Below, piece by piece: positions 12,468 through 46,731 of a stretch of 64,000 nt of DNA. Position 1 is the stretch's first letter, and the number at the start of each line of letters is the position of its first letter. The notes beneath the pieces were generated by a model that worked only from the letters and a program-made list of their open reading frames with translations, made no database searches and had not been told where the DNA came from. The translations under genes and the position numbers were made by a program. Source of the DNA: Spirochaetaceae bacterium. Lineage in GTDB: Bacteria > Spirochaetota > Spirochaetia > DSM-2461. The stretch is taken from NCBI GenBank assembly GCA_965224705.1, contig OZ245056.1:1376001-1440000 (forward strand), in the 5' to 3' direction.

Positions 12468-12469
12468 AC

Positions 12470-13560: not shown

Positions 13561-13565
13561 AGGAG

Positions 13566-15801: not shown

Positions 15802-15804
15802 AAG

Positions 15805-17049: not shown

Positions 17050-17059
17050 GAGATGAGAG

Positions 17060-18310: not shown

Positions 18311-18328
18311 GGAAATAGGAGGAAAAAC

Positions 18329-19060
18329 ATGTTAAGGACTATTATGACCGGCCTGATCGGCATGGCTGCAGCATCGGCGCTTTTCGCGCAAAGCGCCGAA
18401 GACATCATTCGGAAGATGGATGAGATGCAAACCTTTGAGACCCTTTACAGCGAAGGAACGATGATCAGTGTTGACCGGTTCGGCGAAAAAAGAAGTACCT
18501 ACAACGCGTGGTCGCGGGGGAGCAAGGACTTCCTCATCGAATTTACCAACGTGGAAGAACGGGGCCAGAAGCTGCTCCGGGTGGAAGACGAACTCTACCT
18601 TTTCTATCCGGATGCCGAAGACATCATTCCCATGCATGGGGCGGCATTGAAACAATCCTTGTTCGGGGATGTTTCCTATGAAGACATTACCGAGGGAAAG
18701 AACACCCTGGATAAGTACAATGTCTCAATGAAGGGGAGCCAGAATGTCGATGGTGTAGACTGCTGGGTTATAGAGATGATCGCAACCAGCCGGGATGTTC
18801 CCTATCCCAAACAGATTATAAAGGTGGGAAAGGCCGATAACGTTCTCCGCGCCGCGGAGTACTATGCCAGGTCCGGTCGGCTGCTCAAGATTGCCGATGT
18901 CAAGTCTTTTCGGAAATTCGACGATGGGCGCGTCTTGATTACCGAAATGGAGTTGGAGGATCAGCTTCGCCGGGGCTCCAGCACAAGAATGCGCATTGAT
19001 ACGCTGGAAATCAATCCCGCGCTTGACGGCGATGTGTTTTCCCTGAGGTCTCTTTACTAA
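18329..19060 (+). CDS. Outer-membrane lipoprotein-sorting (LolA-like) protein
   Basis: Signal peptide; GQKLL..LYLFYP, SLFGDVSYED, GRLLK; typical operon position. Confidence 0.75.
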   Translation: MLRTIMTGLIGMAAASALFAQSAEDIIRKMDEMQTFETLYSEGTMISVDRFGEKRSTYNAWSRGSKDFLIEFTNVEERGQKLLRVEDELYLFYPDAEDIIPMHGAALKQSLFGDVSYEDITEGKNTLDKYNVSMKGSQNVDGVDCWVIEMIATSRDVPYPKQIIKVGKADNVLRAAEYYARSGRLLKIADVKSFRKFDDGRVLITEMELEDQLRRGSSTRMRIDTLEINPALDGDVFSLRSLY

Positions 19061-20621: not shown

Positions 20622-20909
20622 GGAGTCTGTCGGACTTACGCCTCACGGCTCGATTTTTGCCCTTCTCTCCAGAAGCAAGCCTCCTGCTTGTTTCTTCCGA
20701 GCCGCCTTCGTTCGTTTTCGCCGCCATCCGTGGCGGCTTTTCCTCGCTATCGCTCGGCACTCTCTCAGGATGCGAGTCCATAGACTCGCATCCCCTGCTG
20801 CTGCGTTGCCAAAATACTCACGTAGCCCAGCTACGCTCCGTTTTTGTCGCCTTGCATCAGGCAAAAATCATCAAAAATCGCCTCGAAATCTTAAAGTCCG
20901 ACAGACTCC
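20622..20909 (+). mobile_element. MITE family 1, long form (288 bp)
   Basis: Same TIRs plus ~125 bp internal insert; appears to interrupt a small AT-rich membrane-protein ORF. Confidence 0.85.
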
Positions 20910-23851: not shown

Positions 23852-24014
23852 GGAGCCTGTCGGATTTACGTCTCACGGCTCGATTTTTGCCCTTTTTCCC
23901 TGCTGCTGCGTTGCCAAAATACTCACGTAGCCCAGCTACGCTCCGTTTTTGTCGCCTTGCATCAGGAAAAAATCATCAAAAATCGCCTCGAAGCCTTAAA
24001 GTCCGACAGACTCC
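23852..24014 (+). mobile_element. MITE family 1, short form
   Basis: Near-identical to 2929-3091. Confidence 0.85.
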
Positions 24015-26114: not shown

Positions 26115-26616
26115 TTAAAGCTTCTGGATCTTCGATTCGCTCAGACCTGTGGCCGTGATGATGAGTTCCATGTCGGCTCCGGCAGTCTTTAATCGCCTGG
26201 CTGTTTCCGTTTTTTCTTCTTCTCTGCCTTCTTCTCTGCCCTTATCCCTGCCATCGCTCCAGGATTCATCCAGACCGCTTAGATAATCCCTTCTCCATTT
26301 CTCTTTGGCTTCCAGCCTGTCAAGCATGGCTTGATCGGCAGTGAATGCTGTGTAGAGTTTATGGGCCTCCTGAATATACGGGTTGTCTCCCAATAACACC
26401 GACATCTCGTCCTCCTTCAAATAGCCTTCGTACTTAGTTGAAATGCTCTTTCAAGTTATAGGGGTTGAGAATGTTGACGCTGATGACCGGAGTGAGGTCT
26501 TTTTGTGTTAAAAAAGCATTGATGAAATTCGTCAACAGACTGGTATTTTTCTCATCACCGAGAAGGGCGCGGGCAAACAAGTCAGACAGCGGATCAAATG
26601 GTCTGGTTGATTCCAT
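26115..26616 (-). pseudogene. Rpn-family gene copy with 377-bp internal deletion; C-terminal small ORF intact
   Basis: Near-identical to both ends of 29538-30428; N-terminal 60-aa ORF stops at 26434; AAGGAGG-N5-ATG precedes MSVLLGDNPY... Confidence 0.85.
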
Positions 26617-27537: not shown

Positions 27538-29169
27538 TCAAGAGTCAGGAGAATCTGTTTCCAGCGCATCCCAGAAAGTGCTGAATTCATCGAGTATCTT
27601 GTGATTCACAAGAATTACTTCCAAAAATTCCGAAACAACATAGCTGAAATTCGCCGAGCGATCGCCGCCAAACGCATGGGCAAATTCATGCAGGTAAGTG
27701 CTCATGGCGCGGGGAAAATTATGCTTGCAAAACAGATTGCTCTTAAGGGCGATATATGGCAGTTTGAATTTTATGTTATTGCCGGAAGGAGTGGTGACAG
27801 TCCTGGCGAGCTTAATGCAGCTTGTCATGCCCTGCCATGCGCCACTTTCATTCTTTATCACTTGAGCCGGAGGCAGTTCTTCCGATGCCATATAACTTTG
27901 AAATAACGCTTTTGTGACTGTCTCCAGCAGCCTGATGCGCTTTTTCTCGTTTTCCGTCGGCAATCTTGTCACATTGAATCCATCATTTTCCTCGCAGACT
28001 CGCTCAAGTTCGGGATAGCCCAATCTGAGAAACCCATCCTGGACCAATTTGTATTTAACATCCTGTTTCTTCATCCATGCCAGGGCCTGGGTTCGCCTGT
28101 TTTTTTGCACGATGTTGCTGGATGAAACCTTTTTTGCAACGATCAGGAAGGGAAATGCCTTCCTCAACTTTTTGACGCATTTTTCAGATTCCGCGACAGC
28201 GCGCACCGTATCGTTAATTATGCTATACCAGGAGTCAAAGTCGTACTTCTTTTTGGGGTACTGGTACCATTTTTTTCTCAATGCTGTCAGCAGTTTCAGG
28301 GCGGCTTCCGGGGGGATTTTATTAACAATTTTATTGACCGTACTTATAACATCCATTCGATAAAAATCGTCTCGTTCCCTGTTTTTGGGCGGCTCGCCGT
28401 GGAGGCAGAAAACTAACGGAGGCGGCAGTGAGCCAAGGGCCTGGAAGCCTGAAAATACTATTCCCTCTCCCCCGTACCAGTAAGTCGATGGATAGTAATA
28501 TGGTTTCGGAAAGGGGGATCGATGATAGATGGCCCCAATGGCGGAAGACCATATTTTTCTTCCAAGCAAAGGATTCTCCTCGTAAAAAAAGCTTAATCTG
28601 GCGCTTTCAAAGATTTCCATTTCATATTCACGAAACGAGGAGATTGTTAAAATGGAGAGATTGCGTCGTCTGCTGTATCTTTTTACCCTGTAGGCCAAAG
28701 ATCTCAGCGTGGAATTGTCAATATTGATATCTGTGGTGACAACTTCCAATTTCCAATCTTTTGAAGCCATGGTTATGCCCCAGCCGTGATCCCTCAGGGC
28801 GCAAAGGGAGGCAATCTTGAATCCTTCGCCGAAATATCCGGCATACTGCCTGTCGCTGTCTCTTTTGGTGGAGGCCCCAATATGAATCAGCCAGTCATAA
28901 CTGAAGGATACATTGGCAACTTCCATGCTCAGATGGTTGTTCTTCATTTTATAAATGAACCGATCTTTCCATTCATGCGGCCCAACAGCGTCATAGAAAT
29001 TTTGAATCAGATCCCGCAAAACTTTGTATTTGGACCACTTGACAGGGTATGTATAAACCAGATTAAGAGAAATCATGTCATCATTCACGTTCTGGCCTCC
29101 TGGCATGGGTATAACGTCGCTGTCAATATAATGAAGTTTGGCTGCTATGGAAATGAGCGAATGACGCAC
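27538..29169 (-). CDS. GHKL-type ATPase domain + C-terminal HExxH motif protein
   Basis: LRDLIQNFYDA, HIGASTK, GYFGEGFKIASL; C-terminal YLHEFAHAFGGD; true start probably downstream of 29169. Confidence 0.7.
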   Translation of the reverse strand: MRHSLISIAAKLHYIDSDVIPMPGGQNVNDDMISLNLVYTYPVKWSKYKVLRDLIQNFYDAVGPHEWKDRFIYKMKNNHLSMEVANVSFSYDWLIHIGASTKRDSDRQYAGYFGEGFKIASLCALRDHGWGITMASKDWKLEVVTTDINIDNSTLRSLAYRVKRYSRRRNLSILTISSFREYEMEIFESARLSFFYEENPLLGRKIWSSAIGAIYHRSPFPKPYYYPSTYWYGGEGIVFSGFQALGSLPPPLVFCLHGEPPKNRERDDFYRMDVISTVNKIVNKIPPEAALKLLTALRKKWYQYPKKKYDFDSWYSIINDTVRAVAESEKCVKKLRKAFPFLIVAKKVSSSNIVQKNRRTQALAWMKKQDVKYKLVQDGFLRLGYPELERVCEENDGFNVTRLPTENEKKRIRLLETVTKALFQSYMASEELPPAQVIKNESGAWQGMTSCIKLARTVTTPSGNNIKFKLPYIALKSNLFCKHNFPRAMSTYLHEFAHAFGGDRSANFSYVVSEFLEVILVNHKILDEFSTFWDALETDSPDS

Positions 29170-29537: not shown

Positions 29538-30428
29538 TTAAAGCTTCTGGATCTTCGATTCGCTCAGACCTGTGGCCTTGATGATGAGTTCCATGTCGGC
29601 TCCGGCAGCCTTTAATCGCCTGGCTGTTTCCGTTTTTTCTTCTTCTCTGCCTTCTTCTCTGCCTTCTTCTCTGCCCTTATCCCTGCCATCGCTCCAGGAT
29701 TCATCCAGACCGCTTAGATAATCCCTTCTCCATTTCTCTTTGGCTTCCAGCCTGTCAAGCATGGCTTGATCGGCAGTGAATGCTGTGTAGAGTTTATGGG
29801 CCTCCTGAATATACGGGTTGTCTCCCAATAACACCGACATCTCGTCCTCCTTCAAATAGCCTTCGTACTTAAAAAAATAGCACCATCGTTCAAAGTCGCT
29901 TTGAAAAGTCAGGTCGGCTTCACCGGGAAATGACATTTTCGAGAGCTCCATGAACATGATGATCAAATGATCTGTCAGTACCAGTTCCGGATGGTCCATT
30001 TCGGTAATATGAAAGCAGGTGTGATATTCCTTCAATTGAGGAAAAAGGGACTCGCCAATCAGATTGATGCAAATAACCGGATTGAGTTTGGTGTAAGTCT
30101 CTGACTGATGCAACTGACTGTGATAGTTTTTGGCCCAGTATAGCAAACTGCGATTGGCAAAATACTTACTGGTGGAAATCTGTACCTCTATGTTGATGAG
30201 GCGTTTGTGGTTGTCTCTTGCCTTGACATCCAATATGGTTTCTTTGTCGTTGAAATGCTCTTTCAAGTTATAGGGGTTGAGAATGTTGACGCTGATGACC
30301 GGAGTGAGGCCTTTTTGTGTTAAAAAAGCATTGATGAAATTCGTCAACAGACTGGTGTTTTTCTCATCACCGAGAAGGGCGCGGGCAAACAAGTCAGACA
30401 GCGGATCGAATGGTCTGGTTGATTCCAT
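29538..30428 (-). CDS. Rpn family recombination-promoting nuclease / PD-(D/E)xK protein
   Basis: KETILDVKA..INIEVQ, RSLLYWAKNY, PVICINL, GREEGREEG repeats, ATGLS end. Confidence 0.9.
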   Translation of the reverse strand: MESTRPFDPLSDLFARALLGDEKNTSLLTNFINAFLTQKGLTPVISVNILNPYNLKEHFNDKETILDVKARDNHKRLINIEVQISTSKYFANRSLLYWAKNYHSQLHQSETYTKLNPVICINLIGESLFPQLKEYHTCFHITEMDHPELVLTDHLIIMFMELSKMSFPGEADLTFQSDFERWCYFFKYEGYLKEDEMSVLLGDNPYIQEAHKLYTAFTADQAMLDRLEAKEKWRRDYLSGLDESWSDGRDKGREEGREEGREEEKTETARRLKAAGADMELIIKATGLSESKIQKL

Positions 30429-30490
30429 GGCTTTATACTACGGTTGTTTTGGCATTTGATGCAAGGGAAAAGTCAATCCATCTGAATTGA

Positions 30491-31160
30491 GGTAACCTGT
30501 CAAGTTAACTGTCCACTTTTTTCATGAAGCTCATGATGACCTGTCTTTCAAGCCGTCAAATGAATCCCTATGGCCTCATTGGCCGATCGTCCACCCAGTA
30601 TCCGCCGTGGGTAGTTGTTGACCCAATCCTGTATCTCCCTGATCTCCTTCTTGCTGTAGCACCCTATATCACTACCTTTGGGTATGAATCGCCGTACCAC
30701 GCCATTGCATTTTCATTGCTTCCCCGCTCCCACGATGAGTATGGGTGCGCATAGTAAATAGTTGATCTCTTGCCCCGGGTCAGGCAGGAGCGTTCCATAT
30801 GACCAAATTCTTCCCGTGTTTCAATATAATCCGGTCGGGTTGAAATACTTTTCATGGCTGACTTTGCTCTGTTGTGTCTCTTATAGCCTTTTGAGCCCTT
30901 CTTATGCCTTCTTTTGCCCCGGAGCAGGTACTTCCTGGCATCCCCCAGCAGACCTTCATGAATATACCGGTAGAGGGTTCTTGTGCTGATTCTTGTGTCC
31001 GTTGGCCATGAATGCTTCTCATAGTGCATGATGACCGCGTCAGGGCTGTATTTCTTTGCAAGGAGCTTTCTGATTTCCCCGACAAGTTTGTAATCGGCTC
31101 CAAGCTTTAATTCGGGCCCCTTTGCTTCAAGTTCCCTACGGCGCGCTGTGCCAAAGTAGT
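30491..31160 (-). mobile_element. IS30-family remnant
   Basis: YSPDAVI, ISTRTLYRYIH, SISTRP..REEFGHME, YYAHPYSSWERGSNEN; catalytic core deleted. Confidence 0.8.
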
Positions 31161-31719
31161 TGTCACACAAGTTAAGTCAACGCAGGAGGTGACAACATGC
31201 AGCGCTACAGTGTTCAATTCAGAAATACTATCTTGCAAAAGATGATCGGCCCGGAGAAACGGAAGGCAGCTGATCTCGCAGAGGAATTCGGGGTTTCTGC
31301 CGCCACAATCTATGGGTGGAAATCAAAGCTCAAAGACGGTACCCTTTCCGTTCTGGGAAATGAATCAACCAGTCATGAAAGAAGACCGTCGGAGAAGCTC
31401 ATGCTTCTACTCGAATCAAAGAATGTCAGTGAAGCAGAAATGGGTGCATGGCTTCGCCGAAATGGTCTGCATTCTGAACATCTTGGGCTATGGGAACAAG
31501 AGCTCCGGGCTCTTGTTGATCAGAAAGGTGGGGATAAGTCCCGGGAGATGAGGGAGATTCGCAAGGAGCTGAAAAAGAGGGATAAAGAGCTTAACCGTAA
31601 GGACAGGGCTCTTGCGGAGATGTCGACAATCATAGCACTTCAAAAAAAACATCTCTTCTGTTTCAGGAAGGACGAGTGACCCATCGTCGTGTGAAAAAGC
31701 AGATTGTTTCTGATATAAA
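31161..31719 (+). mobile_element. IS3-family remnant: left end, orfA (31197-31679) and start of orfB
   Basis: TG start, AGGAGG RBS, HTH orfA ending in an A8 slippery run; truncated by a MITE. Confidence 0.75.
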
Positions 31720-31882
31720 GGAGTCTGTCGGACTTACGCCTCACGGCTCGATTTTTGCCCTTTTTTCCCGCTACCGCGTTGTCAAAATGCTCACGGAGCC
31801 CAGCTACGCTCCGCTTTTGCCGCCTTGTATCGGAAAAAAATCATCAAAAATCGCCTCGAAGTCTTAAAGTCCGACAGACTCC
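31720..31882 (+). mobile_element. MITE family 1, short form
   Basis: Same TIRs, 163 bp. Confidence 0.85.
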
Positions 31883-31987
31883 TAAGCGTCATACACCAAT
31901 TACATGATTACTGAAACGGTGTCTATCTGCTCTTCAACAACTTTTTTTTTCTTACAGCATCATACGCCAATTACATGATTACTGAAA

Positions 31988-32446
31988 CTATGATGTAAAT
32001 TGAGATAGCTTATCTTTCTTGTTTCTTTCCACGACTTCAAACACCAGATCTCCTCCCAATTTATCTAAAGCATTAACAAATGTTTCTATTCGTCTTTGCT
32101 TATTTGGTTTTTCCATTTTTCTTATCATTGGTTGACTAACACCTAATTTATCAGCTAATTCTTTCTGTGTTAATCCATCTTTGAGTCTCAGCAGTTTTAT
32201 GGCAAGAGAAAGAGCAAGTGACGGTTTCAGATGTATTTCGAATTCATTTTTCTCTTTGTTGGATGGCAAAGGGATGGTTCTTTCTTTTTCAAGGTAGTAG
32301 GCAACAGTTGTATTGAGTGCCTCAGTTGCCATACTCAATGCTTCATTAAGCGATTCTCCAGAAGTTATAATTTCAGTAAAATCCTTGAATGATACAATGC
32401 ACTCATTTTCTTTTTCGACTATTGCGCATGGATAAGCTAATTTCAT
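31988..32446 (-). CDS. hicB: HicB-family antitoxin with C-terminal XRE HTH
   Basis: YPC..VSFKDF..ITSGESLNEALSMATEAL..IPLPS; LTQKELADKLGVSQ. Confidence 0.85.
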   Translation of the reverse strand: MKLAYPCAIVEKENECIVSFKDFTEIITSGESLNEALSMATEALNTTVAYYLEKERTIPLPSNKEKNEFEIHLKPSLALSLAIKLLRLKDGLTQKELADKLGVSQPMIRKMEKPNKQRRIETFVNALDKLGGDLVFEVVERNKKDKLSQFTS

Positions 32447-32627
32447 AATAGTTTTACCCCTGTTTGTTTCTCTATGGCTTTAACAACAGGTCTTTTTACA
32501 TCCCTGGATCCATGAAATCCAATAACAGTAACCTTTCCATCTTTTTCAAATATGTAATGAGATCCGTTTATGCGTTTCAATTTCCAGCTATTTTTTTAAG
32601 GATGTTTATAATTTCTCTTCCCCTCAT
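32443..32627 (-). pseudogene. hicA: HicA-family toxin, frameshifted in an A7 run
   Basis: With one extra A it reads MRGREIINILKKNSWKLKRINGSHYIFEKDGKVTVIGFHGSRDVKRPVVKAIEKQTGVKLL; TGA overlaps the hicB ATG. Confidence 0.8.
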
Positions 32628-32774
32628 ACATGAATATAGTCCATAGGTTATTTTATTTCAAGTTTCCGATATACGTTTATGGGGGACTCTTTGGCTATCG
32701 TTGCGGCAAGCTGTTAATTCCTATTTCAAAAGCACCATCTCCCACTGATTTGATTATGAAAAGTCCCTTCTTTA

Positions 32775-32955
32775 GTGCGCTTGAAGACTATAAGTGCTGC
32801 GGCACTGGATAGGATTTTTGCCAAGGAACTTAAAAGGCTCAAAGATCAAGGGGGAGGCGGCATTGATAGATCGGATACCATACGAATCTTTGGATATTGG
32901 GAAGGTGTTCAGCCGGGCCATTTTCAGATTGACTGCGTTGAACATGAGGGAGGTC
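32775..32955 (+). pseudogene. Integrase-type transposase fragment
   Basis: ISAAALDRIFAKE..W..QPGHFQIDCVEHEGG resembles the SAATIDR..PGFxEID.V.H.GG motif of DDE transposases. Confidence 0.5.
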
Positions 32956-33193
32956 ATTATCTACTCAAAAAAGAATCAAACTCATTCGCCTACAGCATTA
33001 TACACCAATTACATGATTACTGAAACGTCTTTAATTCCATACCCCCAACAGTGGAATCGTATCATTTTGCCCTAAAATCCTCTCAAAAATGGAAAAACTG
33101 CGATGCAGTGCCGATTTTAGGAGATTCCACATCCAAAGAAATCTCTAATCCCCTTACTATTCCTCCCCCCATCATCCATGCTATTTTAGACCC

Positions 33194-34666
33194 ATGCCCC
33201 TTGATTACTTTGACCTGGCACATCTGCGTAAAACCCACCCCTCATGGCGTCTTATGATGGCGGACAACGGACCCCTTGTTATCAGCTTTTTTGATCGGGT
33301 CTTCCGGGAGGACAACACCCGTTACCTAAGTGAAGATGAACTGACTATGCAGCTGGAGGACTATCTTTTCGCCCTGCGGGAACACTTTGAAGACAACCCC
33401 TTTCCCCGGAGTGCCAGAGAATATCTTGACGAATGGACGGCATCCGACCGACAGTGGCTGCGCAAGTTCTACCCCCAGGGCAGCGACATCCCCCACTACG
33501 ATCTGACACCGGGCACCGAGAGGGTGCTGCAGTGGACTGACGGCCTCTTCGGTACAGGCTTCGTGGGTACCGAAAGCCGCCTGAATACCAGCATAGAACT
33601 GCTCAGGCAGATTGTTCACGGAGTGGAAGAAGATAAAGATAGGCGAATTAAGGAACTGGAAGCCCAGAGACAGCAGATAAACCGGCAGATTAAAGATATC
33701 AAAGAAGGGCATATAGAGATTCTCGGCGACCGCCAGGTACGGGAGCGTTTCCTTCAGTTCCAACGGACAGCCCGGGAACTTCTTAGCGATTTCAGGGCGG
33801 TGGAACACCATTTCCGTGAGTTGGATCTCCGTGTCAGGGAGCAGATTGCCGCCTGGGACGGTGAGAAGGGCGAACTGCTGGAGAATTTCTTCGGCAGCCA
33901 TGATCAAATCAGTGAATCCGACGAAGGACAGAGCTTCAAGGCCTTCTGGGATTTCCTTATGTCGCCTTCCAGTCAGGAGGAGATGAGCGCTCTTCTCGAC
34001 CGGATTCACGAACTGGAATCTCTGGCGGATCTGCTGGCGGACCGCCGCCTCCGCCGCATTCATTTCGACTGGATGGCCGCCGGTGAGCAGACCCAGCGCA
34101 CCGTGGCCCGCCTCTCCAAACAACTAAGAACTTATCTTGATAATCGGGCTTTCTGGGAAAATCGCCGTATTACCGAGATTCTCGATAATATTGAAAAGAA
34201 AGCCGTCAATTTGCGGGAAGAGCCCCCTGAAGAGGACGATTTTATGGAACTGGAAGGCTGCAAACCAGTCTTAAATCTCCCCATGACCCAGGCCCTCTTT
34301 AAGCCTCCCGAAAAGATTGAGCTTGTCTCACTCATCGAACCGGGTGATGAAAAGAATGTGGATACTTCCAGGCTTTACGACCTGGTTATGCTGGACAAGG
34401 CCCGCTTACGCAATAACATCAAAACAGAACTGGAAGACCGCAGTCAGATTCGCCTGCAGCAGATCATCGAAGCGCATCCCCTTAAGGAAGGACTGGCCGA
34501 ACTGGTAACCTACGTCCATCTGGCCGAAGAAGATCCCCTGGCCCTGATTCATGAGGATCAACAGGACGAAGTCCAGTGGAAGGCGGAAACAGGTCTGACG
34601 CGCCGGGCCCGGCTGCCCCGTATTGTGTTTAATCGGCGGTCTGACGAAGACAAGAAAACACTATAA
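33194..34666 (+). CDS. jetA: Wadjet JetA (DUF3375)
   Basis: HPSWRLM, WLRKFYP, FVGTESRLNT, SDEGQSFKAFWDFL, GLAELVTY. Confidence 0.9.
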   Translation: MPLDYFDLAHLRKTHPSWRLMMADNGPLVISFFDRVFREDNTRYLSEDELTMQLEDYLFALREHFEDNPFPRSAREYLDEWTASDRQWLRKFYPQGSDIPHYDLTPGTERVLQWTDGLFGTGFVGTESRLNTSIELLRQIVHGVEEDKDRRIKELEAQRQQINRQIKDIKEGHIEILGDRQVRERFLQFQRTARELLSDFRAVEHHFRELDLRVREQIAAWDGEKGELLENFFGSHDQISESDEGQSFKAFWDFLMSPSSQEEMSALLDRIHELESLADLLADRRLRRIHFDWMAAGEQTQRTVARLSKQLRTYLDNRAFWENRRITEILDNIEKKAVNLREEPPEEDDFMELEGCKPVLNLPMTQALFKPPEKIELVSLIEPGDEKNVDTSRLYDLVMLDKARLRNNIKTELEDRSQIRLQQIIEAHPLKEGLAELVTYVHLAEEDPLALIHEDQQDEVQWKAETGLTRRARLPRIVFNRRSDEDKKTL

Positions 34667-35250
34667 TGGAACAGCGGAAAGAGGAGCACCTGTCCCTTGT
34701 CCTAACGAGTCTCATGAAGGGCATAGTGTATCGGGAGGACAAACCCGAATTGTGGAACCAGCTTCTGAACCTACAGGGACCTGTCCGGGACTATCTAAAA
34801 GTGATGGGACTGGATGTCAGTATCTACGAAACCGATGGATTCGCCTATCTGGAAACCCTGGAAACCGGGGAAGGAGAATCCCCCGTGCCCCGGCTTATTA
34901 TCCGCCGGCAGCTCTCCTATCCCGTTAGCCTTATGCTGGCCCTTCTCAGGCGTAAGCTGACCGAGCACGATGCCTATTCGGGAGAAGTCCGGCTTATTCT
35001 GGATAAAGACGAGGTCACGGACATGCTTACGGCCTTCTTCTCTGTGGGAAGCAATGAGGTCAAATACCTCAAACGCATCGACAGCTATCTGCAGAAAATA
35101 CATGATCTGGGCTTCATCCGTTTGTTTGGAGATAAGAAGGATAAAATAGAAGTGAAACGCATTCTTAAGGCCTTTGTGGATGCCCAGTGGCTGAGTGACC
35201 TGGATGCCCGCCTTGAGGAGTATCGGAACCATGGAGAAAACCATGAGTGA
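34666..35250 (+). CDS. jetB: Wadjet JetB (DUF4194)
   Basis: LMKGIVY, PRLIIRRQLSYPVSL, EVKRILKAFVDAQWL. Confidence 0.9.
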   Translation: MEQRKEEHLSLVLTSLMKGIVYREDKPELWNQLLNLQGPVRDYLKVMGLDVSIYETDGFAYLETLETGEGESPVPRLIIRRQLSYPVSLMLALLRRKLTEHDAYSGEVRLILDKDEVTDMLTAFFSVGSNEVKYLKRIDSYLQKIHDLGFIRLFGDKKDKIEVKRILKAFVDAQWLSDLDARLEEYRNHGENHE

Positions 35251-38200
35251 CGGCTTTCTTGAGTTTTCCGCGGACGACACCACCGCCGGTTTCCGCCTGA
35301 TACGGATGGAACTCTATAACTGGGGTACCTTCAACAACCGAATCTGGTCGCTGCCCCTTAAAGGGCGGAACGGCCTGCTCACCGGCGATATTGGCTCGGG
35401 AAAATCCACGGTGGTCGATGCCGTGACGACCCTTCTGGTCCCCGCCCATCGTGTGGCCTACAACAAGGCCGCCGGAGCGGATTACAGGGAGCGTTCCCTC
35501 CGGTCCTATGTGCTGGGTTATTACAAATCCGAGCGCAGTGACGGGGGCTTCTCGGCCAAACCCGTAGCATTGCGAAAGGAAGGAACCTTTCATTCGGTGA
35601 TTCTGGGAGTCTTTCACAATGAGGGCTATAATCAGACGGTAACTCTGGCGCAGGTGTTTCGCCAGAAGGACCATACAGGGCAGCCCGACCGGTTTTATGT
35701 GGTCGGCGACACCCCCATGTCAATAAGGGAACACTTCTCCGATTTCGGAAACGACATAAACGCTCTCCGCAGGCGGCTGCGCGGCCTGGAATATACGGAG
35801 CTTCATGACTCCTTTCCCCCCTATGGGGCGGCCTTCAGACGGCGCTTCGGCATCAAAAATGAACAGGCGCTGGAACTCTTTCATCAGACAGTCTCGCTCA
35901 AGGCTGTCGGTAATCTGACATCCTTCGTGCGGGAGCACATGCTTGAAGCCTTCGATGCCGGGACGGGCATTGAAAACCTTATTCAGCACTTTGAAGATCT
36001 GAACACGGCCCATGATGCCATTCTCAGAGCAAAGGCCCAGATAGCCGCCTTGACACCGCTGGTGGAGTCCCTGGACCGCCATCAGGAAACCCAACTGGAG
36101 CTGGAAACCCTGACCGCCGCCCGCAATGGCCTGCAGGCCTATTTTGCCAATTTGAAGAAGAGGTTTCTTGAAGAGCGTATCGGTCAGGAAGAACTCAAGG
36201 CGGAAAAACTGGCACTCCGCCGGGAAGCCTGCAAAGAACGCCTCTCGGAATTGAAATCCGATCGGGACGAGATTAAGCAGGCCATCGCTGTCAACGGGGG
36301 AGACCGTCTGGAAACCCTTAAAAGTGAGGCACGGCGTGTTAGTGCCGAGAAAGATAAGCGCATCGGCAAGGCGGGGGATTATAATAATCTGGCCCGCAGT
36401 CTGGAGCTTCCCGAATTGAAAGATTCCGGGGTATTTACCGATAACCGCAGCCGTCTGGAAGAACTGTTGTCCGACACGGACGCCAGGAAGGGTGAGCACT
36501 CAAACAGACACTCTGACGTGGAGTATGCATTCCGGGGCCTTCAAGACGAGCATGCCGAACTGGCGGCGGAAATTGCATCATTGAAGCGGCGCAAAAGCAA
36601 TATTGCCTCCCGGCAGATCGATATTCGTACTCGCCTATGCCAGGATCTGGATATTGAAGAGGAAAGGCTGCCCTTTGCCGGGGAACTCATGGCGGTTCGG
36701 GAGGATGAAACGGCATGGGAGGGCGCCGCCGAAAGGGTTCTTCGCAATTTCGGCCTTTCCCTTCTGGTTCCCGAAGATCTCTATGCGCAAGTGCTGCAGT
36801 GGGTGGATGAGACAGGCCTTAAGGGACGTCTTGTGTACTATCGTGTCGGTTCATTCAAAGCGGTGCCCCATCAGCCTCATGGGGCACAGTCCCTTATCAA
36901 CAAGATATCGCTGAAAAAGGACAGCTCCCACCATGACTGGCTTAAGGATCAATTGATTCGGCGTTTCGACTTTAGCTGCTGCAAGACCCTGGAAGAATTT
37001 CGCCGCAGCGGAAAGGGGCTGACCAGGGCCGGTCAGATTAAGGGCTCGTCTCTGCGTCACGAGAAAGACGACCGCCACGACATTGACGATCGCAGCCGCT
37101 ACGTTCTGGGCTGGACCAATCAAGTTAAGATTAGCGCTCTTGAAAAACGCCGGGACAAGCTGGAACACAGCATCGCCGATCGGGGGACTGAACTGGCCGG
37201 TCTTCAAAAGAAAATGACGGCCCTGGAAGAGAGGGGCGATCGTATAAAGGAACTCCGGTATTTCACGGTCTTTGATGATTTGGACTGGAAACCCCTGGCC
37301 CTGCGCCTCGATGAGCTTAGTGCCGAAATCAACACTCTTGAAAACCGTTCGGATCTTTTGAAATCTCTCCAGGAACGTCTGCGCAGTGTCGAGACCGATA
37401 TTGCCGAGACTGAGAACTCTTTGGACGAGATTAAACGGGGTATTGCGACGATTGAAGCGAAAATTGAAGGACACCGGGAGGCAGCCCTCCGGGAAGAGGA
37501 AATTCTGGCTTCTGTCGAAACAGCCCCGGAAGATGTGTCCGCCCTAATCGACCCATTTCTTAAAAAACATCTGCCGGATCGCAAGCTTTATCTTGAAACC
37601 TGTCCCAAGGCCGAGAGTGATCTGCGGTCGGAATTGCAGACCTTCATTGATAGCGGGCGGAAAAGACTAGACCGGCTACTCCAGTCCATCATCAGTACCA
37701 TGGAGACTTTTCGCCGGGATTATCCCTCTGAAACCCGGGATATGGATGCCGCCATTGAAGCTGGCGGTGAATACCGGAATTTTCTTGGGCGTTTAACGCG
37801 CGATAATTTGCCCCGGTTTGAGGCCCAGTTCAAGACTTTGCTCAATGAAAACACCATCAGAGAGATTGCCGGATTTCAGGCCCAGTTGAATACGGAAGTG
37901 CAGAAAATAAAGGAAAAAATCGACCGCATTAACAAGTCCTTGTCTGAGATTGAATACAACAAGGACCGCTACATCTATCTCGAAGCCATCAATACCAACG
38001 ACCCGGAAATACGTGATTTCCGTCAGGAACTGAAGGCCTGTATTGAAGGCGCGTTCACGGGCGGCGGTGATGAGCAGTACACGGAGGCCAAATTTCTGCA
38101 GGTTAAGGAAATTGTTGATCGTTTCAAAGGCCGGGAAGGACGCTCCGACAGCGACAGCCGCTGGACGAATAAGGTAACGGATGTGCGGAACTGGTTCGTC

Positions 38201-38611
38201 TTTGCCGCCTCCGAACGCTGGTTTGAAGACGGCAGTGAGTACGAGCACTACACCGATTCCGGCGGTAAGTCGGGAGGGCAGAAAGAAAAACTGGCTTACA
38301 CGGTGCTGGCGGCCAGCCTGGCCTATCAGTTTGGTCTGGAATGGGGCGAGGTTCGCTCCCGCAGCTTTCGTTTTGTTATGATAGACGAGGCCTTCGGACG
38401 CGGTTCCGACGAATCGGCACAGTACGGCCTTGAGCTCTTCAGGAAGTTGAATCTCCAGCTTCTCATCATCACGCCTTTGCAGAAGATCCATATTATAGAG
38501 CCCTATGTCTCCACGGTGGGTTTTGTCAGTAATGAAGAGGGACAAAACTCCCTGCTGCGCTGTTTGACCATAGAAGAGTACCGGGATGAAAAGGCAGCGA
38601 AAAAATCATGA
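35243..38611 (+). CDS. jetC: Wadjet JetC, SMC-like ATPase
   Basis: NWGTF, GDIGSGKST, long coiled coils, KSGGQKEKL, MIDEAF; ATG 35243 overlaps jetB stop. Confidence 0.92.
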   Translation: MSDGFLEFSADDTTAGFRLIRMELYNWGTFNNRIWSLPLKGRNGLLTGDIGSGKSTVVDAVTTLLVPAHRVAYNKAAGADYRERSLRSYVLGYYKSERSDGGFSAKPVALRKEGTFHSVILGVFHNEGYNQTVTLAQVFRQKDHTGQPDRFYVVGDTPMSIREHFSDFGNDINALRRRLRGLEYTELHDSFPPYGAAFRRRFGIKNEQALELFHQTVSLKAVGNLTSFVREHMLEAFDAGTGIENLIQHFEDLNTAHDAILRAKAQIAALTPLVESLDRHQETQLELETLTAARNGLQAYFANLKKRFLEERIGQEELKAEKLALRREACKERLSELKSDRDEIKQAIAVNGGDRLETLKSEARRVSAEKDKRIGKAGDYNNLARSLELPELKDSGVFTDNRSRLEELLSDTDARKGEHSNRHSDVEYAFRGLQDEHAELAAEIASLKRRKSNIASRQIDIRTRLCQDLDIEEERLPFAGELMAVREDETAWEGAAERVLRNFGLSLLVPEDLYAQVLQWVDETGLKGRLVYYRVGSFKAVPHQPHGAQSLINKISLKKDSSHHDWLKDQLIRRFDFSCCKTLEEFRRSGKGLTRAGQIKGSSLRHEKDDRHDIDDRSRYVLGWTNQVKISALEKRRDKLEHSIADRGTELAGLQKKMTALEERGDRIKELRYFTVFDDLDWKPLALRLDELSAEINTLENRSDLLKSLQERLRSVETDIAETENSLDEIKRGIATIEAKIEGHREAALREEEILASVETAPEDVSALIDPFLKKHLPDRKLYLETCPKAESDLRSELQTFIDSGRKRLDRLLQSIISTMETFRRDYPSETRDMDAAIEAGGEYRNFLGRLTRDNLPRFEAQFKTLLNENTIREIAGFQAQLNTEVQKIKEKIDRINKSLSEIEYNKDRYIYLEAINTNDPEIRDFRQELKACIEGAFTGGGDEQYTEAKFLQVKEIVDRFKGREGRSDSDSRWTNKVTDVRNWFVFAASERWFEDGSEYEHYTDSGGKSGGQKEKLAYTVLAASLAYQFGLEWGEVRSRSFRFVMIDEAFGRGSDESAQYGLELFRKLNLQLLIITPLQKIHIIEPYVSTVGFVSNEEGQNSLLRCLTIEEYRDEKAAKKS

Positions 38612-39807
38612 AAACACCGGAGGACGTTCGGGAACTTCTGCTGAAGAAATGGAAGACCGGCCGTTATTTTTTTGAAGAGAACTACCCCCTGTCTGTGACT
38701 CTGGGCCTTCCTTCCGCGGCCTCTATGACAGACAGATTCAACGAGCTGCGCCGCTGGGCTTCTGACTGGCAGAAAAAAGAGAGTTCCGCCTGTCCCCTGG
38801 AGTGGAAGGAGATAAATCACAGACTGCTGGGTAAAAACCGCCTGCCCGGAGCCCTTGTTTTCCATGTCCCCGAGACTCTGGCCCGGTATATCGGGCGTTT
38901 GGGAGAGCTTAAAACCTATGTGAAGCTTCGTGAGATTCTTCATAAGGCGGATTCCAGACTGGCCGCCGAATGGGCCGATACTCATCCCTTTGATCTGATT
39001 GCCTGTGCTGATGATCTGCCCCGTTTAATAATTCTCTGGCAATGGATGCTCTCTCACCCCCGTCCGGGTCTCTATCTCCGGCAGATCAATCTTCCCGGTA
39101 TTGATACGAAATTCACGGCACAATACAGAAGAGTTCTGGCTGAGTGGCTGGATTTGACCCTGCCGCCGGATCATATCGATGAAACCTTCAGCGGCGTGAA
39201 GCATTTTGAGGAACGCTACGGCTTCAGAAAGAAACCCGAACTCATCCGTTTCCGTATCCTCGATCCCGCCCTGGCGAAGCCATGGAAGGAATGCAGGGAC
39301 ATCAGCATTCCTTCTGAAGAATTCTGCCAGTTGTACAGCCATGTTTCCGGCAGCCCCCGCGAATCGGCCTGCCCATTTGAGAAGGTCTTCGTCGTGGAGA
39401 ATGACATTACAGCCCTTTCTTTTCCCGAGCTGGAAAAAGGTCTGATTATTTTTGGTCGGGGCTATAACTTTAGCTCATGGAGTGAAGCCGCCTGGCTGAA
39501 GGTGCTGGATCTGTATTACTGGGGAGACATCGACACCCATGGTTTCAGAATCCTTGATGAATTCCGTTCCTTCTTTCCCTGTGCCCGCTCCATCCTTATG
39601 GATCGGCAGACCCTTCTTGACCATGAAGCTTCCTGGGGGGAAGAGAAAGCACCCCAGTCGGCGGAACTTACCCACCTTACGGAAGAAGAAGGAATGCTCT
39701 ACGACGATCTGCGCTTCAACCGCCTTCGTCCCAATCTTAGACTGGAGCAGGAATTTATCCGCATGGATTCGGTGTATGGCGTTTTGAATGGCCTGTCGCT
39801 TTTCTGA
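38608..39807 (+). CDS. jetD: Wadjet JetD, Toprim nuclease (DUF3322/DUF2220)
   Basis: YLRQINLPGIDTKF, VVEN, FGRGY, YYWGDIDTHGF, RLEQE. Confidence 0.92.
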   Translation: MKTPEDVRELLLKKWKTGRYFFEENYPLSVTLGLPSAASMTDRFNELRRWASDWQKKESSACPLEWKEINHRLLGKNRLPGALVFHVPETLARYIGRLGELKTYVKLREILHKADSRLAAEWADTHPFDLIACADDLPRLIILWQWMLSHPRPGLYLRQINLPGIDTKFTAQYRRVLAEWLDLTLPPDHIDETFSGVKHFEERYGFRKKPELIRFRILDPALAKPWKECRDISIPSEEFCQLYSHVSGSPRESACPFEKVFVVENDITALSFPELEKGLIIFGRGYNFSSWSEAAWLKVLDLYYWGDIDTHGFRILDEFRSFFPCARSILMDRQTLLDHEASWGEEKAPQSAELTHLTEEEGMLYDDLRFNRLRPNLRLEQEFIRMDSVYGVLNGLSLF

Positions 39808-39940
39808 GCCGGATCTGATCAAAGAATCACGCCCTAAAAATATGCTGTGCCATGAAGCCTGTGTTTTCAAAAAATTTCTTCTCCGGATTTTTGCGAATAG
39901 ATGAATCCGTAGAGCCGATTCTGCTATTCTTGAATTTCCA

Positions 39941-40228
39941 GGAGTCTGTCGGACTTTAAGGCTTCGAGGCGATTTTTGATGATTTTTTCCTGATGCAAGG
40001 CGGCAAAAACGGAGCGTAGCTGGGCTGCGTGAGCATTCTGGCAACGCAGCAGCAGGGGATGCGAGTCTATGGACTCGCATCCTGAGAGAGTGCCGAGCGA
40101 TAGCGAGGAAAAGCCGCCACGGATGGCGGCGAAAACGAACGAAGGCGGCTCGGAAGAAGCAAGCAGGAGGCTTGCTTCTGGAGAGAAGGGCAAAAATCGA
40201 GCCGTGAGGCGTAAGTCCGCCAGACTCC
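39941..40228 (-). mobile_element. MITE family 1, long form
   Basis: Reverse complement of 20622-20909. Confidence 0.85.
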
Positions 40229-40266
40229 TGGAAGGCATTCAGACCACTCCGAATTCCAGCCCCAAT

Positions 40267-40324: not shown

Positions 40325-43300
40325 TTAGGGGATGGCCTGAATTATGGCCGCGTGGGTGCTCCAACCTGCTGCATTACCTGTTGCGTTTTTGAAGTCATCC
40401 ACAAGATCAGCCGGAACATAGATGTCTGTTAAGCTAGAGGCGCGGGAGAATGCATCAGTGTATTGTGGTACCTTTCGGTCATCAGCAGCAACACTGCTGC
40501 CGTATCTCACGGTTACGGTTGTCAGTGAGCTGCAATCTATAAATGTCTCGTTGAGGTATGCACGAGCAGTCTCATGCAAAAGCGTAAGGTCTACGCTAGT
40601 AACATTGCTCCCCTGGAACGTCTTTTGTAGATTTGTAGAAGAGGTAGTTAGGGTGACGGCAGGGTTAGCAAATGTGACCCCCTGAAAATGTTGTCCGTCG
40701 TTAAGTGTTACGTTTACTATGTTATTGAAAGCTACATTGGCACTCTGAAAGGGGTAACTACTGAGAATTATATTGGCAGGAAACGTTGGGGCTGTCAAGG
40801 TCTTCACGTTTTGAAAAGCTGCCACCCCTATGCGTGTAAGACTGGAAGGAAAAGAGCTAAGGGCTATATCCGTGCTTTGAAACGCAAAGTCGTCGATGCG
40901 GGTAACGCTGTCAGGAAGACTGGTAAGAGCTGAAAGTGAAGAATTCCCAAAGGACTTTTCATGAATTCTCTTTAGACCTTCGGGCATCGTCACCGAGGTC
41001 AAACTAGAGAACAGCAATTGTTCGCCAACGCTGTCATGCTGATAGAAGGCTCTCTCATCGGACGGAACACTGACCGGCTGCCCAATCTCCGTCACGGGTT
41101 TCTCCTGCCAGTACGCGGGGATGGTGACAGAGGTAACGAGATCGACGTCAGCCTGCGTGAGTCCAACCTTATCATAAAACACAGCGTATTCAGCATCGTT
41201 ATTTATCAGGTCGTATCTAAGCTCTGCGGTGGCTGTCAGCCATTCGGCGTGGAGGGTCGTTACATCCGTGAAGGTGTAGGAATCCCCTGAGCGGTAGGTG
41301 GTACCCGAGCCGTCAGCCGCCGTGTTCCACCCGGCAAAGGCGAAGCCGCTTCTTGTAAGGGTGCCGTAGCTTGCGTCGGGGATAGTACCCGACAACCCTG
41401 CAAGCATCGCTGCCGCAGCATTTCCCGTTCCACCGTTGACATCAAGGACAACACCCTTCGGCGTGGCGGATACCTCGCCGGAGGGAGAGCTCTCCCCGGC
41501 CGCGGTGAAGGCGACTACCTTGAAGTAGTACGTGGTCAGGTCGGTGAGTCCATCGACCATCAGGCTTGTGGCGGAGTTGCCCGCTTCCCTGGAAGGCGCT
41601 GTTCCAATGTCAAAGCCCTGGGTTGTTGAATAATAGATCCGGTATTCCGGCACGCCTGCGCTACCGCCTACAATACCATTATCAGTCGGCGCGGTCCAGG
41701 AGACTTCCACCTGGGTGCTGCCTGCAGTGGCGCTGCCAATGGTAGGCGCTCCGGGAGGGGTGTTCCCCGCAACCGGCGCGGCACTATCTTCGTCGGACGC
41801 AGGGCCCTCGCCCATGCCGGTGGTTGCCGTTACGATGACGTAGTAATTCTGGCCGTTGGCAAGGGGATCTAACTCATGCGAAGTGGCCGGAGCTTGTACG
41901 GTTGCCTTGTCGGTTGAACCCGTTGTGACACCGGTGGAGGTACCCCAATACACGGTGTATTCGCTTATCACCCCTGCAATGCCGTTGTAAATACCCTTGT
42001 CGGTGGGGGCGCTCCAGCGTACCACCAGTTTGCCATCTCCCTGGTCGATGCTGGTAATCGTGGGCTTTCCGGGAAGCGCGTCATCCGGAACCGGTGTGCC
42101 GCTATCTGCGGTGGGCGCAGGGCCCTCGCCCATGCCGGTGGTTGCCGTTACGATGACGTAGACCTCCTGGTTGTTGGTAAGACCAGTTATCTCATACGAA
42201 GTGGCCGGAGCTTGTACGGTTTGCTTGTTGGTTGAACCCGTTGTGACGCCGGAGGAGGTATCCCAATAAACGGTGTATTCGCTTATCACCCCTGCAATGC
42301 CGTTGTAAATACCCTTGTCGGTGGGGGCGCTCCAGCTTACCGTCAGTTTGCTATCTCCTGGGGCAACGCTGGTAATCGTGGGCGCTTCGGGAAGGCTGTT
42401 CGCAATCGGCGCAGCGCTTGATTCAGTGGACGCAGGGCCCTCGCCCATGCCGGTGGTTGCCGTTACGATGACGTAGTATGTATCGCCATTGGTAAGACCA
42501 CTTATCTCATGCGAAGTGGCCGGAGCTTGTACGGTTGCCTTGTCGGTTGAACCCGTTGTGACACCGGTGGAGGTACCCCAATACACGGTGTATTCGTCTA
42601 TCACTCCTTCAATGCCGTTGTAATAGCCCTTGTCGGCGGGGGCGCTCCAGCTTACCAGCAGTTTGCCATCTCTTGGGGCAACGCTGGTAATCGTGGGTGC
42701 TCCGGGAAGGCTGGCAACGCTTATCAATATGATGATTTCCTGCGTATCGCCATCGTAGACGGTGCCTGTTTTTCCTGTCGCCACTATTGTGTAGGAGGTC
42801 TGGGAACTTCCTGCCGTCGGTGTGCCAGAGATAGTTCCGTCTGCTGCAAGGCTGAGTCCTGCGGGCAGGCTTTCACCAGTTTTCATGGCGTAGGTCGCCT
42901 CACCACTGTTGGTACCGATCGGCGACTGATCCGTAATCTGAACGCCGAGGGTAAAGTCACCATCATCGTAGGTAATCGTTCCCAGAGTCGGCTTGTCTGT
43001 CACCGTCAGGGTGAAGGTGGTGGAAACCGTGCCTGAGTAGTTATTTTGGCCGGTGGCCGTTACGGTGTAGATGCCTCCATCGCCTTGGGCAATAGCTGCG
43101 GCTATGGTGATGTCGCCGGCATTGGTGATGCTGAGGTGGTTGGTTGCTACACCTGCAGGTGCCGTAATTTCCAGAATGTAGTCGTCTCCCGCCGTGAAGC
43201 CTTGGGAAATCGCTACTTGAGGAGAACCGCCCGTTCCCGCCGTTACGCTTGTAGCACCAATCGTGAGGGTGAGGCCGGCGGCTGTGAGGCTCTTTTTGGT

Positions 43301-44311
43301 CACCGTCAGGGTGAAGTCATCGCTAACCATGCCTGTGTAGTTGCCTTTGCCGGTGGCCGTTACGGTGTAGTCGCCTCCATCATTCATGACAATGGCGCTG
43401 GTCATGGTGATGGTGCCGTCATCGGCGATGCTGACGGCGCCGGAGGTTACGCCAGGTCCCGTAATGCTCAAGCCGTAGTCGGTTCCCGCTGTTAGGGTGC
43501 CGCCGACCGTTACGCTATGGGTTCCCCCTGTCAGTGCCGTTGTGTTTGTATCGTCAACCGTGAGGAAGAATTCGGAGGAATCCAGGCTAGAGATATCTAT
43601 CTGATTTTCCAGCTTCTTCACCGTCAGGGTGAAATCTTTTGTGTCGCTCTCCGTTCCCAGAGTGATGGTTGCCCTCAGTACCACTGTGTCATCGGTTCCC
43701 GAAATGCCCGGGCGTGTCACAGCGGCGGTTTCTCCACTGGTACCGCTCAGGGTTATCGCCGTTCCGGAAGTTACTTCCCAGCTAATGGCGGTGCCCTTCT
43801 GGCCGGTAGTGGGCAGGGTAAAATCTAAATTAACGGCCGCCAAATCGCCGCCCGCCGCCGTTGTTATGTCCAGATCGGCCTTGTCGGCGGCTACCTTTTG
43901 GGCATCGGTTAATTCGGCGGCCTCCTCAATGGTAATGGATATTGTCGCCGTCTTTACCGTGCCGTCCGCGAGAGTGGCGGTAATGGTGTATTCCTTGGCT
44001 GCGGCGGCGGCCGTAGGAGTACCGGAGATAATCCCCGTGTCAGAGGCCAGTTCAAGGCCTGCAGGCAGGGCATCCCCACTTACCTTATACGTCACCCCGC
44101 TCCCCGGGTCGCCCTCCCATGTAGGGGACACTGCATTGATCGCGGTACCAGCCGTTCCGGTTACCGCAGAATAGCTGAGTTCCAATGGCAGCTCGGGCCC
44201 CCCGCCAGGGCAGGCTCCAAGCAGGGCGCTCATGGCAATGACCGCGAGCACCACCAAATAGAATTTACCTCTGCTTTTGGTTTTAAGATACCGATTTTGT
44301 TCGAAATTCAT
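40325..44311 (-). CDS. Large surface lipoprotein: Ig-like, 4x fibronectin III, InlB B-repeat, BspA-type LRR
   Basis: LLGAC lipobox; LPAGL..GIISGTPT Ig motifs; PGAPTI..VSWSAP..YYVIVTA repeats; FAGWNTAADGSG; IDDFAF/IGVAAF LRR; IYVP end; AGGAGG RBS. Confidence 0.85.
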   Translation of the reverse strand: MNFEQNRYLKTKSRGKFYLVVLAVIAMSALLGACPGGGPELPLELSYSAVTGTAGTAINAVSPTWEGDPGSGVTYKVSGDALPAGLELASDTGIISGTPTAAAAAKEYTITATLADGTVKTATISITIEEAAELTDAQKVAADKADLDITTAAGGDLAAVNLDFTLPTTGQKGTAISWEVTSGTAITLSGTSGETAAVTRPGISGTDDTVVLRATITLGTESDTKDFTLTVKKLENQIDISSLDSSEFFLTVDDTNTTALTGGTHSVTVGGTLTAGTDYGLSITGPGVTSGAVSIADDGTITMTSAIVMNDGGDYTVTATGKGNYTGMVSDDFTLTVTKKSLTAAGLTLTIGATSVTAGTGGSPQVAISQGFTAGDDYILEITAPAGVATNHLSITNAGDITIAAAIAQGDGGIYTVTATGQNNYSGTVSTTFTLTVTDKPTLGTITYDDGDFTLGVQITDQSPIGTNSGEATYAMKTGESLPAGLSLAADGTISGTPTAGSSQTSYTIVATGKTGTVYDGDTQEIIILISVASLPGAPTITSVAPRDGKLLVSWSAPADKGYYNGIEGVIDEYTVYWGTSTGVTTGSTDKATVQAPATSHEISGLTNGDTYYVIVTATTGMGEGPASTESSAAPIANSLPEAPTITSVAPGDSKLTVSWSAPTDKGIYNGIAGVISEYTVYWDTSSGVTTGSTNKQTVQAPATSYEITGLTNNQEVYVIVTATTGMGEGPAPTADSGTPVPDDALPGKPTITSIDQGDGKLVVRWSAPTDKGIYNGIAGVISEYTVYWGTSTGVTTGSTDKATVQAPATSHELDPLANGQNYYVIVTATTGMGEGPASDEDSAAPVAGNTPPGAPTIGSATAGSTQVEVSWTAPTDNGIVGGSAGVPEYRIYYSTTQGFDIGTAPSREAGNSATSLMVDGLTDLTTYYFKVVAFTAAGESSPSGEVSATPKGVVLDVNGGTGNAAAAMLAGLSGTIPDASYGTLTRSGFAFAGWNTAADGSGTTYRSGDSYTFTDVTTLHAEWLTATAELRYDLINNDAEYAVFYDKVGLTQADVDLVTSVTIPAYWQEKPVTEIGQPVSVPSDERAFYQHDSVGEQLLFSSLTSVTMPEGLKRIHEKSFGNSSLSALTSLPDSVTRIDDFAFQSTDIALSSFPSSLTRIGVAAFQNVKTLTAPTFPANIILSSYPFQSANVAFNNIVNVTLNDGQHFQGVTFANPAVTLTTSSTNLQKTFQGSNVTSVDLTLLHETARAYLNETFIDCSSLTTVTVRYGSSVAADDRKVPQYTDAFSRASSLTDIYVPADLVDDFKNATGNAAGWSTHAAIIQAIP

Positions 44312-44387
44312 GGAAATTCCTCCTAAAACTATTTTCAACTATATCCCCAACTTATTCAATTTAGGGATTTACAAAACAATACTTCTA

Positions 44388-44850: not shown

Positions 44851-44902
44851 TGCGGCTCGAGCGTAGATAAAACGACCAAACCATGCTATGCTGAAAAGCG
44901 TC

Positions 44903-46657: not shown

Positions 46658-46731
46658 TCTCTCACGGAACGAGTTCACGGAGATTATTCAAGGCTTCCAT
46701 TCCCCATAGCATTCCGCTATAATGCAAAATT

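Follow-up and report, generated by a model that had tools for sequence, protein, structure and literature searches.

How does a toxin–antitoxin gene pair come to lie between CRISPR repeats with no cas genes nearby? This question is raised by a 64,000-nt stretch of the genome of a Spirochaetaceae bacterium (GCA_965224705.1, contig OZ245056.1, positions 1,376,001 to 1,440,000; hereafter the window, in whose numbering positions are given unless stated otherwise), in which three direct repeats (R1, R2 and R3) lie beside a Wadjet locus and the last two are separated by a gap of 1,000 nt that holds hicB, hicA and a scrap of a transposase gene (Table 1). A first-pass annotation, made from the sequence alone, had listed three repeats, a spacer, hicAB and the scrap, all of which are present, and had found no cas genes in the window, which is also the case; its dimensions for the unit (35–36 bp) and the spacer (35 bp) have to be corrected to 38 nt, the unit common to all 12 copies of the main array described below, and 33 nt. 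The reading that we favour, and hold to be moderately probable, is that hicAB and the insertion sequence (IS) scrap are an insertion scar in the old end of a type II-B array, later trimmed by deletions.

Table 1. Features at and around the window repeats (positions within the window).
Feature	Positions	Strand	Description
MITE1	31720-31882	.	Non-autonomous inverted-repeat element, about 163 bp
R1	31883-31917	minus	Damaged type II-B repeat, leader-side end of relic
R1-R2 spacer	31918-31950	minus	33 nt; no target found
R2	31951-31988	minus	Repeat, 1 mismatch to consensus
hicB	31988-32446	minus	152 aa, open frame; HicB-HTH antitoxin
Spacer-sized piece	31989-32026	minus	38 nt, read as last 12 hicB codons
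hicA	32443-32627	minus	HicA_toxin PF07927, 41.7 bits, cut-off 27
Promoter-like site upstream of hicA	32633-32661	minus	10/12; site count at chance level
Transposase scrap	32686-32950	plus	Mid-gene fragment, rve-type transposase; no IS end
Non-IS piece before R3	32951-32988	minus	38 nt (+/-3); likely intact spacer
R3	32989-33026	minus	Repeat, 2 mismatches to consensus; old, distal end
Piece upstream of R3	33027-33050	minus	24 nt; possibly cut spacer
MITE2	33051-33132	.	Core of second short dispersed inverted-repeat element; at least 3 other genome copies
jetABCD (Wadjet)	33194-39807	plus	PADLOC; divergent neighbour

The repeats belong to a CRISPR family that is complete elsewhere in the same genome. 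A scan of the single 3.0-Mb contig, allowing up to 12 mismatches, gave 15 copies, three in the window and 12 in a main array, with none outside these two arrays; the reversed control pattern gave no copies, so the 15 are not a matter of chance. That the repeat might be only an IS end or att site is rejected. The label "orphan", given to the window repeats earlier, fails once the whole genome is searched for the repeat and for cas genes: an intact type II-B locus with cas9, cas1, cas2, cas4 and a tracrRNA lies at genome positions 540.9–549.8 kb, 865 kb from the window repeats. Its Cas9, a 1,609-aa open frame, passes TIGR03031 with 616.9 bits against a cut-off of 399.4, which bears out the type II-B assignment first made from the repeat, and cas1, cas2 and cas4 lie in an operon and score above cut-off with Pfam and NCBIfam models. 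The 12 repeats of its array (genome 540,916–542,954; L001:12916-14954) are all perfect. An IS30-family element splits this array in its third unit, and on the distal side it is cut by an rve-type IS of the window scrap's family: about 14 nt separate the array's distal end from the end of that IS, with no target duplication seen. Its spacers 2 and 4 are near-duplicates (25/27 nt), which suggests repeated attack by related phages. The genome also carries a type I-C-like locus at 1,042,700–1,062,000 (about 1.04–1.06 Mb), with its own arrays, including a long one, and with an array followed by a second cas5/cas8/cas7/cas3-like block, as judged from ORF starts only.

The window piece and the main array have no spacer in common. 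One large inversion splitting the array is disfavoured as the cause of their separation: the right order is possible, but dnaA (at 1,288,815, with the GC-skew maximum at 2.74 Mb) would move and the replichores would become about 2.1 and 0.9 Mb. Beyond this genome, the repeat was found in none of 300 other genomes of the class (up to three mismatches), exact 22-nt matches to it in none of the metagenome and viral contigs, and the Cas9 of this locus in none of 37 genomes of the family; an Rfam search gave two weak matches, far below the gathering score.

The orientation of the window piece follows from an anti-repeat at about 543,070 in the main locus, which has 20–21 predicted pairs with the first 22–23 nt of the consensus and of R1–R3, R2 keeping 20 of them. 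The pairing energy (−23.3) by itself does not stand out from random, random 135-mers having a mean of −18.2 and a minimum of −28.9; the tracrRNA body aligns with the same region in all seven relatives aligned. By this predicted pairing, the transcript strand in the window is the minus strand, which is also that of hicAB. As to age, 29 related loci were found with the Cas1, 28 of which hold an array; seven arrays run off the locus, leaving 21 with the distal end in view. The repeat is 37 nt long in 27 of the 28 and ends in CTGAAA[CT] on the cas strand in all of them. Mutated full repeats occur at the cas-distal end of nine of the 21 arrays and at the proximal end of one, partial distal repeats occur in three more, and both the 18 relatives listed and the main array have a conserved leader-like motif on the cas-proximal side. 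In type II-C arrays the distal end is the old end (PMC12080349, excerpt), and the distal mutated repeats and cas-proximal leader motif indicate the same for type II-B. The window repeats, all three of them mutated, look like such an old, cas-distal array end.

No leader adjoins them: that of the main array has no second copy, its conserved motif has no copy near the window, and MITE1 occupies its place. MITE1 cuts R1 at a TA on the would-be leader side, its flanks being unequal (AA/TA), and breaks the 3' end of R1 in the transcript sense; R1 also has one substitution and one missing base. The description of R1 as a degenerate terminal repeat thus stands as regards degeneracy, which is mainly MITE damage, and falls as regards a trailer position, R1 being the leader-side repeat. 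MITE1 has 195 matches in the genome, 98 of them full-length, and 60 of these 98 have matching 2-bp flanks. The element is often in tandem and has a 2-bp target duplication; other window copies lie at 2929–3091, 20747–20909, 23852–24014 and 39940–40229, and the end sequence is also present in two other genomes (G001 and G009).

The left flank as a whole is a graveyard of mobile DNA, in which one intact and one broken PD-(D/E)XK_2 gene (26115–26616, 29538–30428 and 30490–31718) sit beside IS30 and IS3 remnants. Between them, a 543-aa ORF (27538–29169) matches neither Pfam nor PADLOC models and shows, by eye, an N-terminal ATPase-like motif and a HEFAH motif. To the right of Wadjet lie a predicted 1,337-aa surface lipoprotein with Ig, FN3 and BspA-type LRR domains (40325–44338), tandem AAA-ATPase/PD-(D/E)XK_9 genes with a WD40-like repeat protein (44888–48486 and 54959–57898), and a methyltransferase and partner that match the PD-Lambda-5 A/B models (49526–51497). 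The adjacency of Wadjet that had been pointed out is real, jetABCD being called by PADLOC; a functional tie of hicAB or the repeats to Wadjet beyond this adjacency is not supported.

The gene pair forms an operon with a 4-nt overlap, and both domain types are found, HicB reaching 26.3 bits with PF15919 (HicB_lk_antitox), just below the cut-off of 27, and also carrying HTH_3. Its GC content is 33–35% against 47% for the genome; hicB is single-copy there, and a search of metagenome and viral contigs for hicB homologues gave distant HTH proteins only, or none. Sequencing runs containing the stretch include mollusc metagenomes, and four runs were compared, all as contigs (X1, X3, X4 and X8), the RNA run X8 having no contig over 31920–33007. 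In this genome the hicA coding sequence changes frame at a T7 run (32591–32597), a frameshift that was overlooked when an intact pair was implied earlier and owing to which a working toxin–antitoxin system in this strain is not supported. The frameshift is common to run X1, and an assembly error is unlikely, as an X1 contig with three other differences has the same run; in X3 and X4, with one more base in the run, hicA is in frame, and an intact 61-aa homologue (P0004) exists.

Against its nearest outside relative (P0002), HicB has 41/70, then 56/70, and then 0/12 identical residues, the break falling 38 nt before R2; two distant homologues (L034 and L044) end at this very point, and the last 12 residues are 10/12 identical to those of P0001. 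Main-array spacers measure 34–39 nt and all other units in the genome 33–39 nt, apart from the IS30 insertion. Because the homology stops one spacer length before R2, a former spacer probably became the C-terminal tail of hicB, whose stop codon TAG is completed by the first G of R2; both the shared G and a spacer-derived tail had been proposed in the first-pass annotation, the first correctly and the second now with the support of this break. P0002 also has a 12-residue tail, equal in length and unrelated in sequence, and the tail may instead have drifted naturally.

At the other end of the gap, other IS copies depart from the window sequence at 32686–32690 and 32947–32950, and the scrap is therefore a mid-gene piece followed by 35–41 nt of non-IS sequence before R3. 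Its sole tblastn relative in the genome (37.5%) is the IS at the distal end of the main array, which has a weak IS481 match below cut-off and is of uncertain family; IS1202/ISNCY is a candidate label for it. With a spacer-sized piece at both ends, the gap takes the form of a 38-nt spacer, 924 nt of cargo and a second 38-nt spacer, as though the cargo had replaced a repeat. No target duplication or inverted ends were found within it, the longest shared word being 6–7 nt.

With one spacer length left between the end of the IS homology and R3, and as much between the end of the hicB homology and R2, the layout is most readily explained as an insertion scar, which upholds the earlier suggestion of an array split by insertion and deletion. 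That extra arrays can arise when an insertion splits one has been described (PMC12814883, excerpt). The window piece would then be a leaderless, cas-less fragment of the same II-B repeat family as the distant Cas9 locus; the IS and hicAB would have inserted in the old array end, the cargo displacing at least one repeat, and later deletions would have trimmed the cargo. One flanking spacer would have become the final 12 codons of hicB, and the MITE would have removed the leader side. Recombination between the direct repeats R2 and R3 would normally allow the cargo to loop out; in strains with an intact hicA such a loss would kill the cell, so the scar is possibly kept by addiction, and in this strain, with the toxin off, the cassette would be neutral. 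Read-through from hicAB would enter R2, the spacer and R1 on the pre-crRNA strand and could supply the main tracrRNA and Cas9 with targetless guides.

Strain variation is consistent with this course of events. Contigs of run X4 span the passages from hicB to R2, from the scrap to R3, and from R3 to near jetA, and the hicB–R2 junction recurs in X4 and, judged by its tail, in P0001. An allele in X1 and X3 is about 10% divergent in the scrap and continues in IS sequence; the hicA promoter is accompanied by a longer IS fragment in X1 record 4 and X3 record 13 and by a shorter one in X4 record 18 and X3 record 12, and such differing lengths fit continuing deletion. X3 and X4 also hold alleles that depart just after the start of the scrap. 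Several points tell against a scar: cargo that replaces a repeat and leaves near-full spacers on both sides is not the commonest outcome of random deletion; the original array is unobserved, no uninterrupted allele of it being seen in the runs compared, and the spacer content and replichore argument above do not link the two arrays; and three of four related gaps, described next, have no transposase found in them.

These gaps bear on the alternative that Cas1–Cas2, with or without Cas4, took up about 1 kb of mobile DNA in a single step as a giant spacer, duplicating the repeat, after which a normal spacer was added. With a gap defined as more than 600 nt between the last repeat or repeats and the rest, and 23 arrays with the distal end in view (the 21 above and two from a wider survey of II-B loci, in which 3 of 401 genomes were above cut-off and both added arrays had no gaps), kilobase gaps occur in the terminal unit of four (L075, L080, L089 and L097). 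The gap of L075 (14177–17049, 2,873 nt) holds PDC-S01 and SoFic, L080 has small AT-rich ORFs in several blocks bounded by repeats, and a half repeat (11771–18644), that of L089 (16245–17840, 1,596 nt) an epimerase, and that of L097 (14744–16024) an IS3 before a half repeat. None of the 23 arrays has a gap at an internal position, though the far repeat is terminal by definition. In the same survey, five 10-mer matches in genome G318 proved not to be repeats.

Integration in one step would agree with the missing target duplication and inverted ends, with the AT-rich cargo, and with transposase-free gaps of 0.65–3.5 kb between repeats, some of them perfect, in L075, L080 and L089, and also with genome G319, in which a II-B leader and a single repeat lie on another contig, away from the cas locus and among restriction-modification-like ORFs (L102:4168-4314). 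We nevertheless regard it as unlikely for the window, as a random fragment end would rarely stop one spacer length from R3, the other units of the genome are of ordinary size, and alleles differ in IS length, one divergent X3 allele reaching a repeat via other letters (joint 32949 to 32992, with a 35-nt side, weak). The last spacer is the one least often deleted (PMC12814883, excerpt), so insertions could persist there without a special mechanism. Since array finders would cut off kilobase terminal gaps, and since these gaps bear on whether Cas1–Cas2 ever captures long DNA, the terminal-gap pattern outweighs the relic itself, one related gap holding two defence genes.

A functional coupling might be considered instead, in which the hicAB mRNA ends in a repeat and is processed by tracrRNA, RNase III and Cas9, or in which repeat RNA binds HicA. 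The strand, the stop codon overlapping R2, the predicted tracrRNA pairs that R2 keeps, and the lack of a predicted terminator-like site before R1 would permit this, and there are precedents: in a Cas13a locus HicA is neutralised by a crRNA (PMC13448076, excerpt), and Cas9 guides can arise from host mRNAs (PMC8224270, excerpt). We give it little credence, as this genome combines a frameshifted hicA with an intact cas9, the 69 ORFs scanned in the gaps and distal flanks of the 21 related arrays (69 of 70 ORFs, one that overlaps a repeat being dropped) include neither HicA nor HicB, the layout is unlike that of CCTA (a hicA-CRISPR-hicB-cas13a system), with cas genes 865 kb away and a HicB that has an HTH and not an RHH C-terminus, and in a predicted co-fold it was R1 that the tracrRNA paired with, R2 folding onto the hicB tail. 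A broader version would have the old ends of II-B arrays serve as landing sites for defence genes (hicAB in the window, PDC-S01 with SoFic in L075), with a spacer-tailed antitoxin mRNA as tracrRNA substrate and Cas9-dependent trimming that removes the hicB stop and tunes HicA toxicity. This version strikes us as rather improbable; if true, a protein toxin–antitoxin pair would be wired to Cas9 through RNA processing and not promoter repression, silenced here by the hicA frameshift. Processing of hicB mRNA by tracrRNA would, if shown, be a new way of coupling such a pair to Cas9.

It is similarly doubtful that the repeats served as recombination sites by which hicAB was moved or excised, as had been suggested earlier. 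The unit does have a direct repeat on either side, integration in CRISPR repeats is known for prophages and for Tn7-like elements (10.1101/2020.10.09.333658 and PMC11837452, excerpts), and the sole outside hicA-hicB relatives found come from contigs that, at 1,070 nt, are close to the 1,000-nt unit in length. The unit has neither an integrase nor a second copy, its repeats are mutated, and its only IS sequence is a mid-gene fragment without intact ends; no R2–R3 empty-site or circle joint was among the joints listed in runs X1, X3, X4 and X8, and there was no match in phage, plasmid and viral collections and none in 40 relatives beyond MITE ends.

The guides of the window likewise show no sign of a target. 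The comparison of the spacers with phage and plasmid sets, recommended in the first-pass annotation, gave no protospacers, the matches falling in hicA or hicB coding sequence; one main-array stretch tested likewise gave one weak match. Anchored at the 3' end, the three window guides match at best 5–9 nt exactly in the local region, the II-B locus and the I-C locus, which is within shuffled levels; over the whole genome they reach 10–12 nt, against 9–14 for shuffles. No target beyond chance was found in hicAB, cas or Wadjet, and matches of a guide to part of a promoter next to a PAM were within shuffled levels; the scans were also run without a PAM. Eight repeat-adjacent guides from L075, L080, L089 and L097 were at chance level too. 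With such matches, it is highly improbable that R3 or the R2–R1 mini-array is a scaRNA or crRNA-like regulator through which Cas9 represses the promoters of hicAB, cas or Wadjet, even though the scaRNA situated upstream of II-B arrays may have its origin in remnants of arrays (PMC6199352, excerpt) and mini-arrays often target toxin–antitoxin promoters (10.1101/2023.03.03.530964, excerpt).

Read as an insertion scar, the locus would be a modest case of array decay, of a spacer turned coding sequence, and of a toxin–antitoxin pair possibly freezing an insertion between repeats. In the full-text literature searched (few subscription papers, no supplements), no report was found that describes hicAB flanked by II-B repeats or II-B arrays with a terminal unit of kilobase size.

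Finally, the locus may be set beside known systems, in each case as the available excerpts present them. With scaRNA, CreTA and crRNA-like mini-arrays (PMC6199352; 10.1101/2023.03.03.530964) it shares ectopic, mutated repeats near a toxin gene, but here no partial promoter target was found and the repeats are not inside a cas locus. The CCTA hicA-CRISPR-hicB-cas13a arrangement of Leptotrichia (PMC13448076) likewise has HicAB interleaved with CRISPR repeats; there, however, the array lies between hicA and hicB beside cas13a and HicB is of the RHH type, whereas here hicA and hicB adjoin and overlap, the repeats around them are those of a distant Cas9 system, and hicA is broken. As with the extraneous and non-canonical crRNAs of type II-C (PMC12080349; PMC8224270), upstream transcription into a repeat could yield a targetless guide, but here an antitoxin mRNA would supply the guide from its 3' end, and no terminator that would insulate it is predicted. 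Similarity is seen to type II-B of Francisella novicida, Legionella and Wolinella (repeats in PMC6199352), in the repeat ends ACTGAAAC, the order cas9-cas1-cas2-cas4, a tracrRNA downstream of the array transcribed towards the cas genes, and mutated distal repeats; the differences are a repeat of 38 nt (37 in 27 of 28 relatives) and a window piece that is leaderless and cas-less and has a 1-kb gene-bearing unit. Like split or distant secondary arrays (PMC12814883), the window piece is a short additional array that has the consensus repeat of the main one and lies far from the cas locus; unlike them, its insertion carries a toxin–antitoxin pair in which the last part of the antitoxin gene is a spacer-sized piece and the repeat completes the stop codon.
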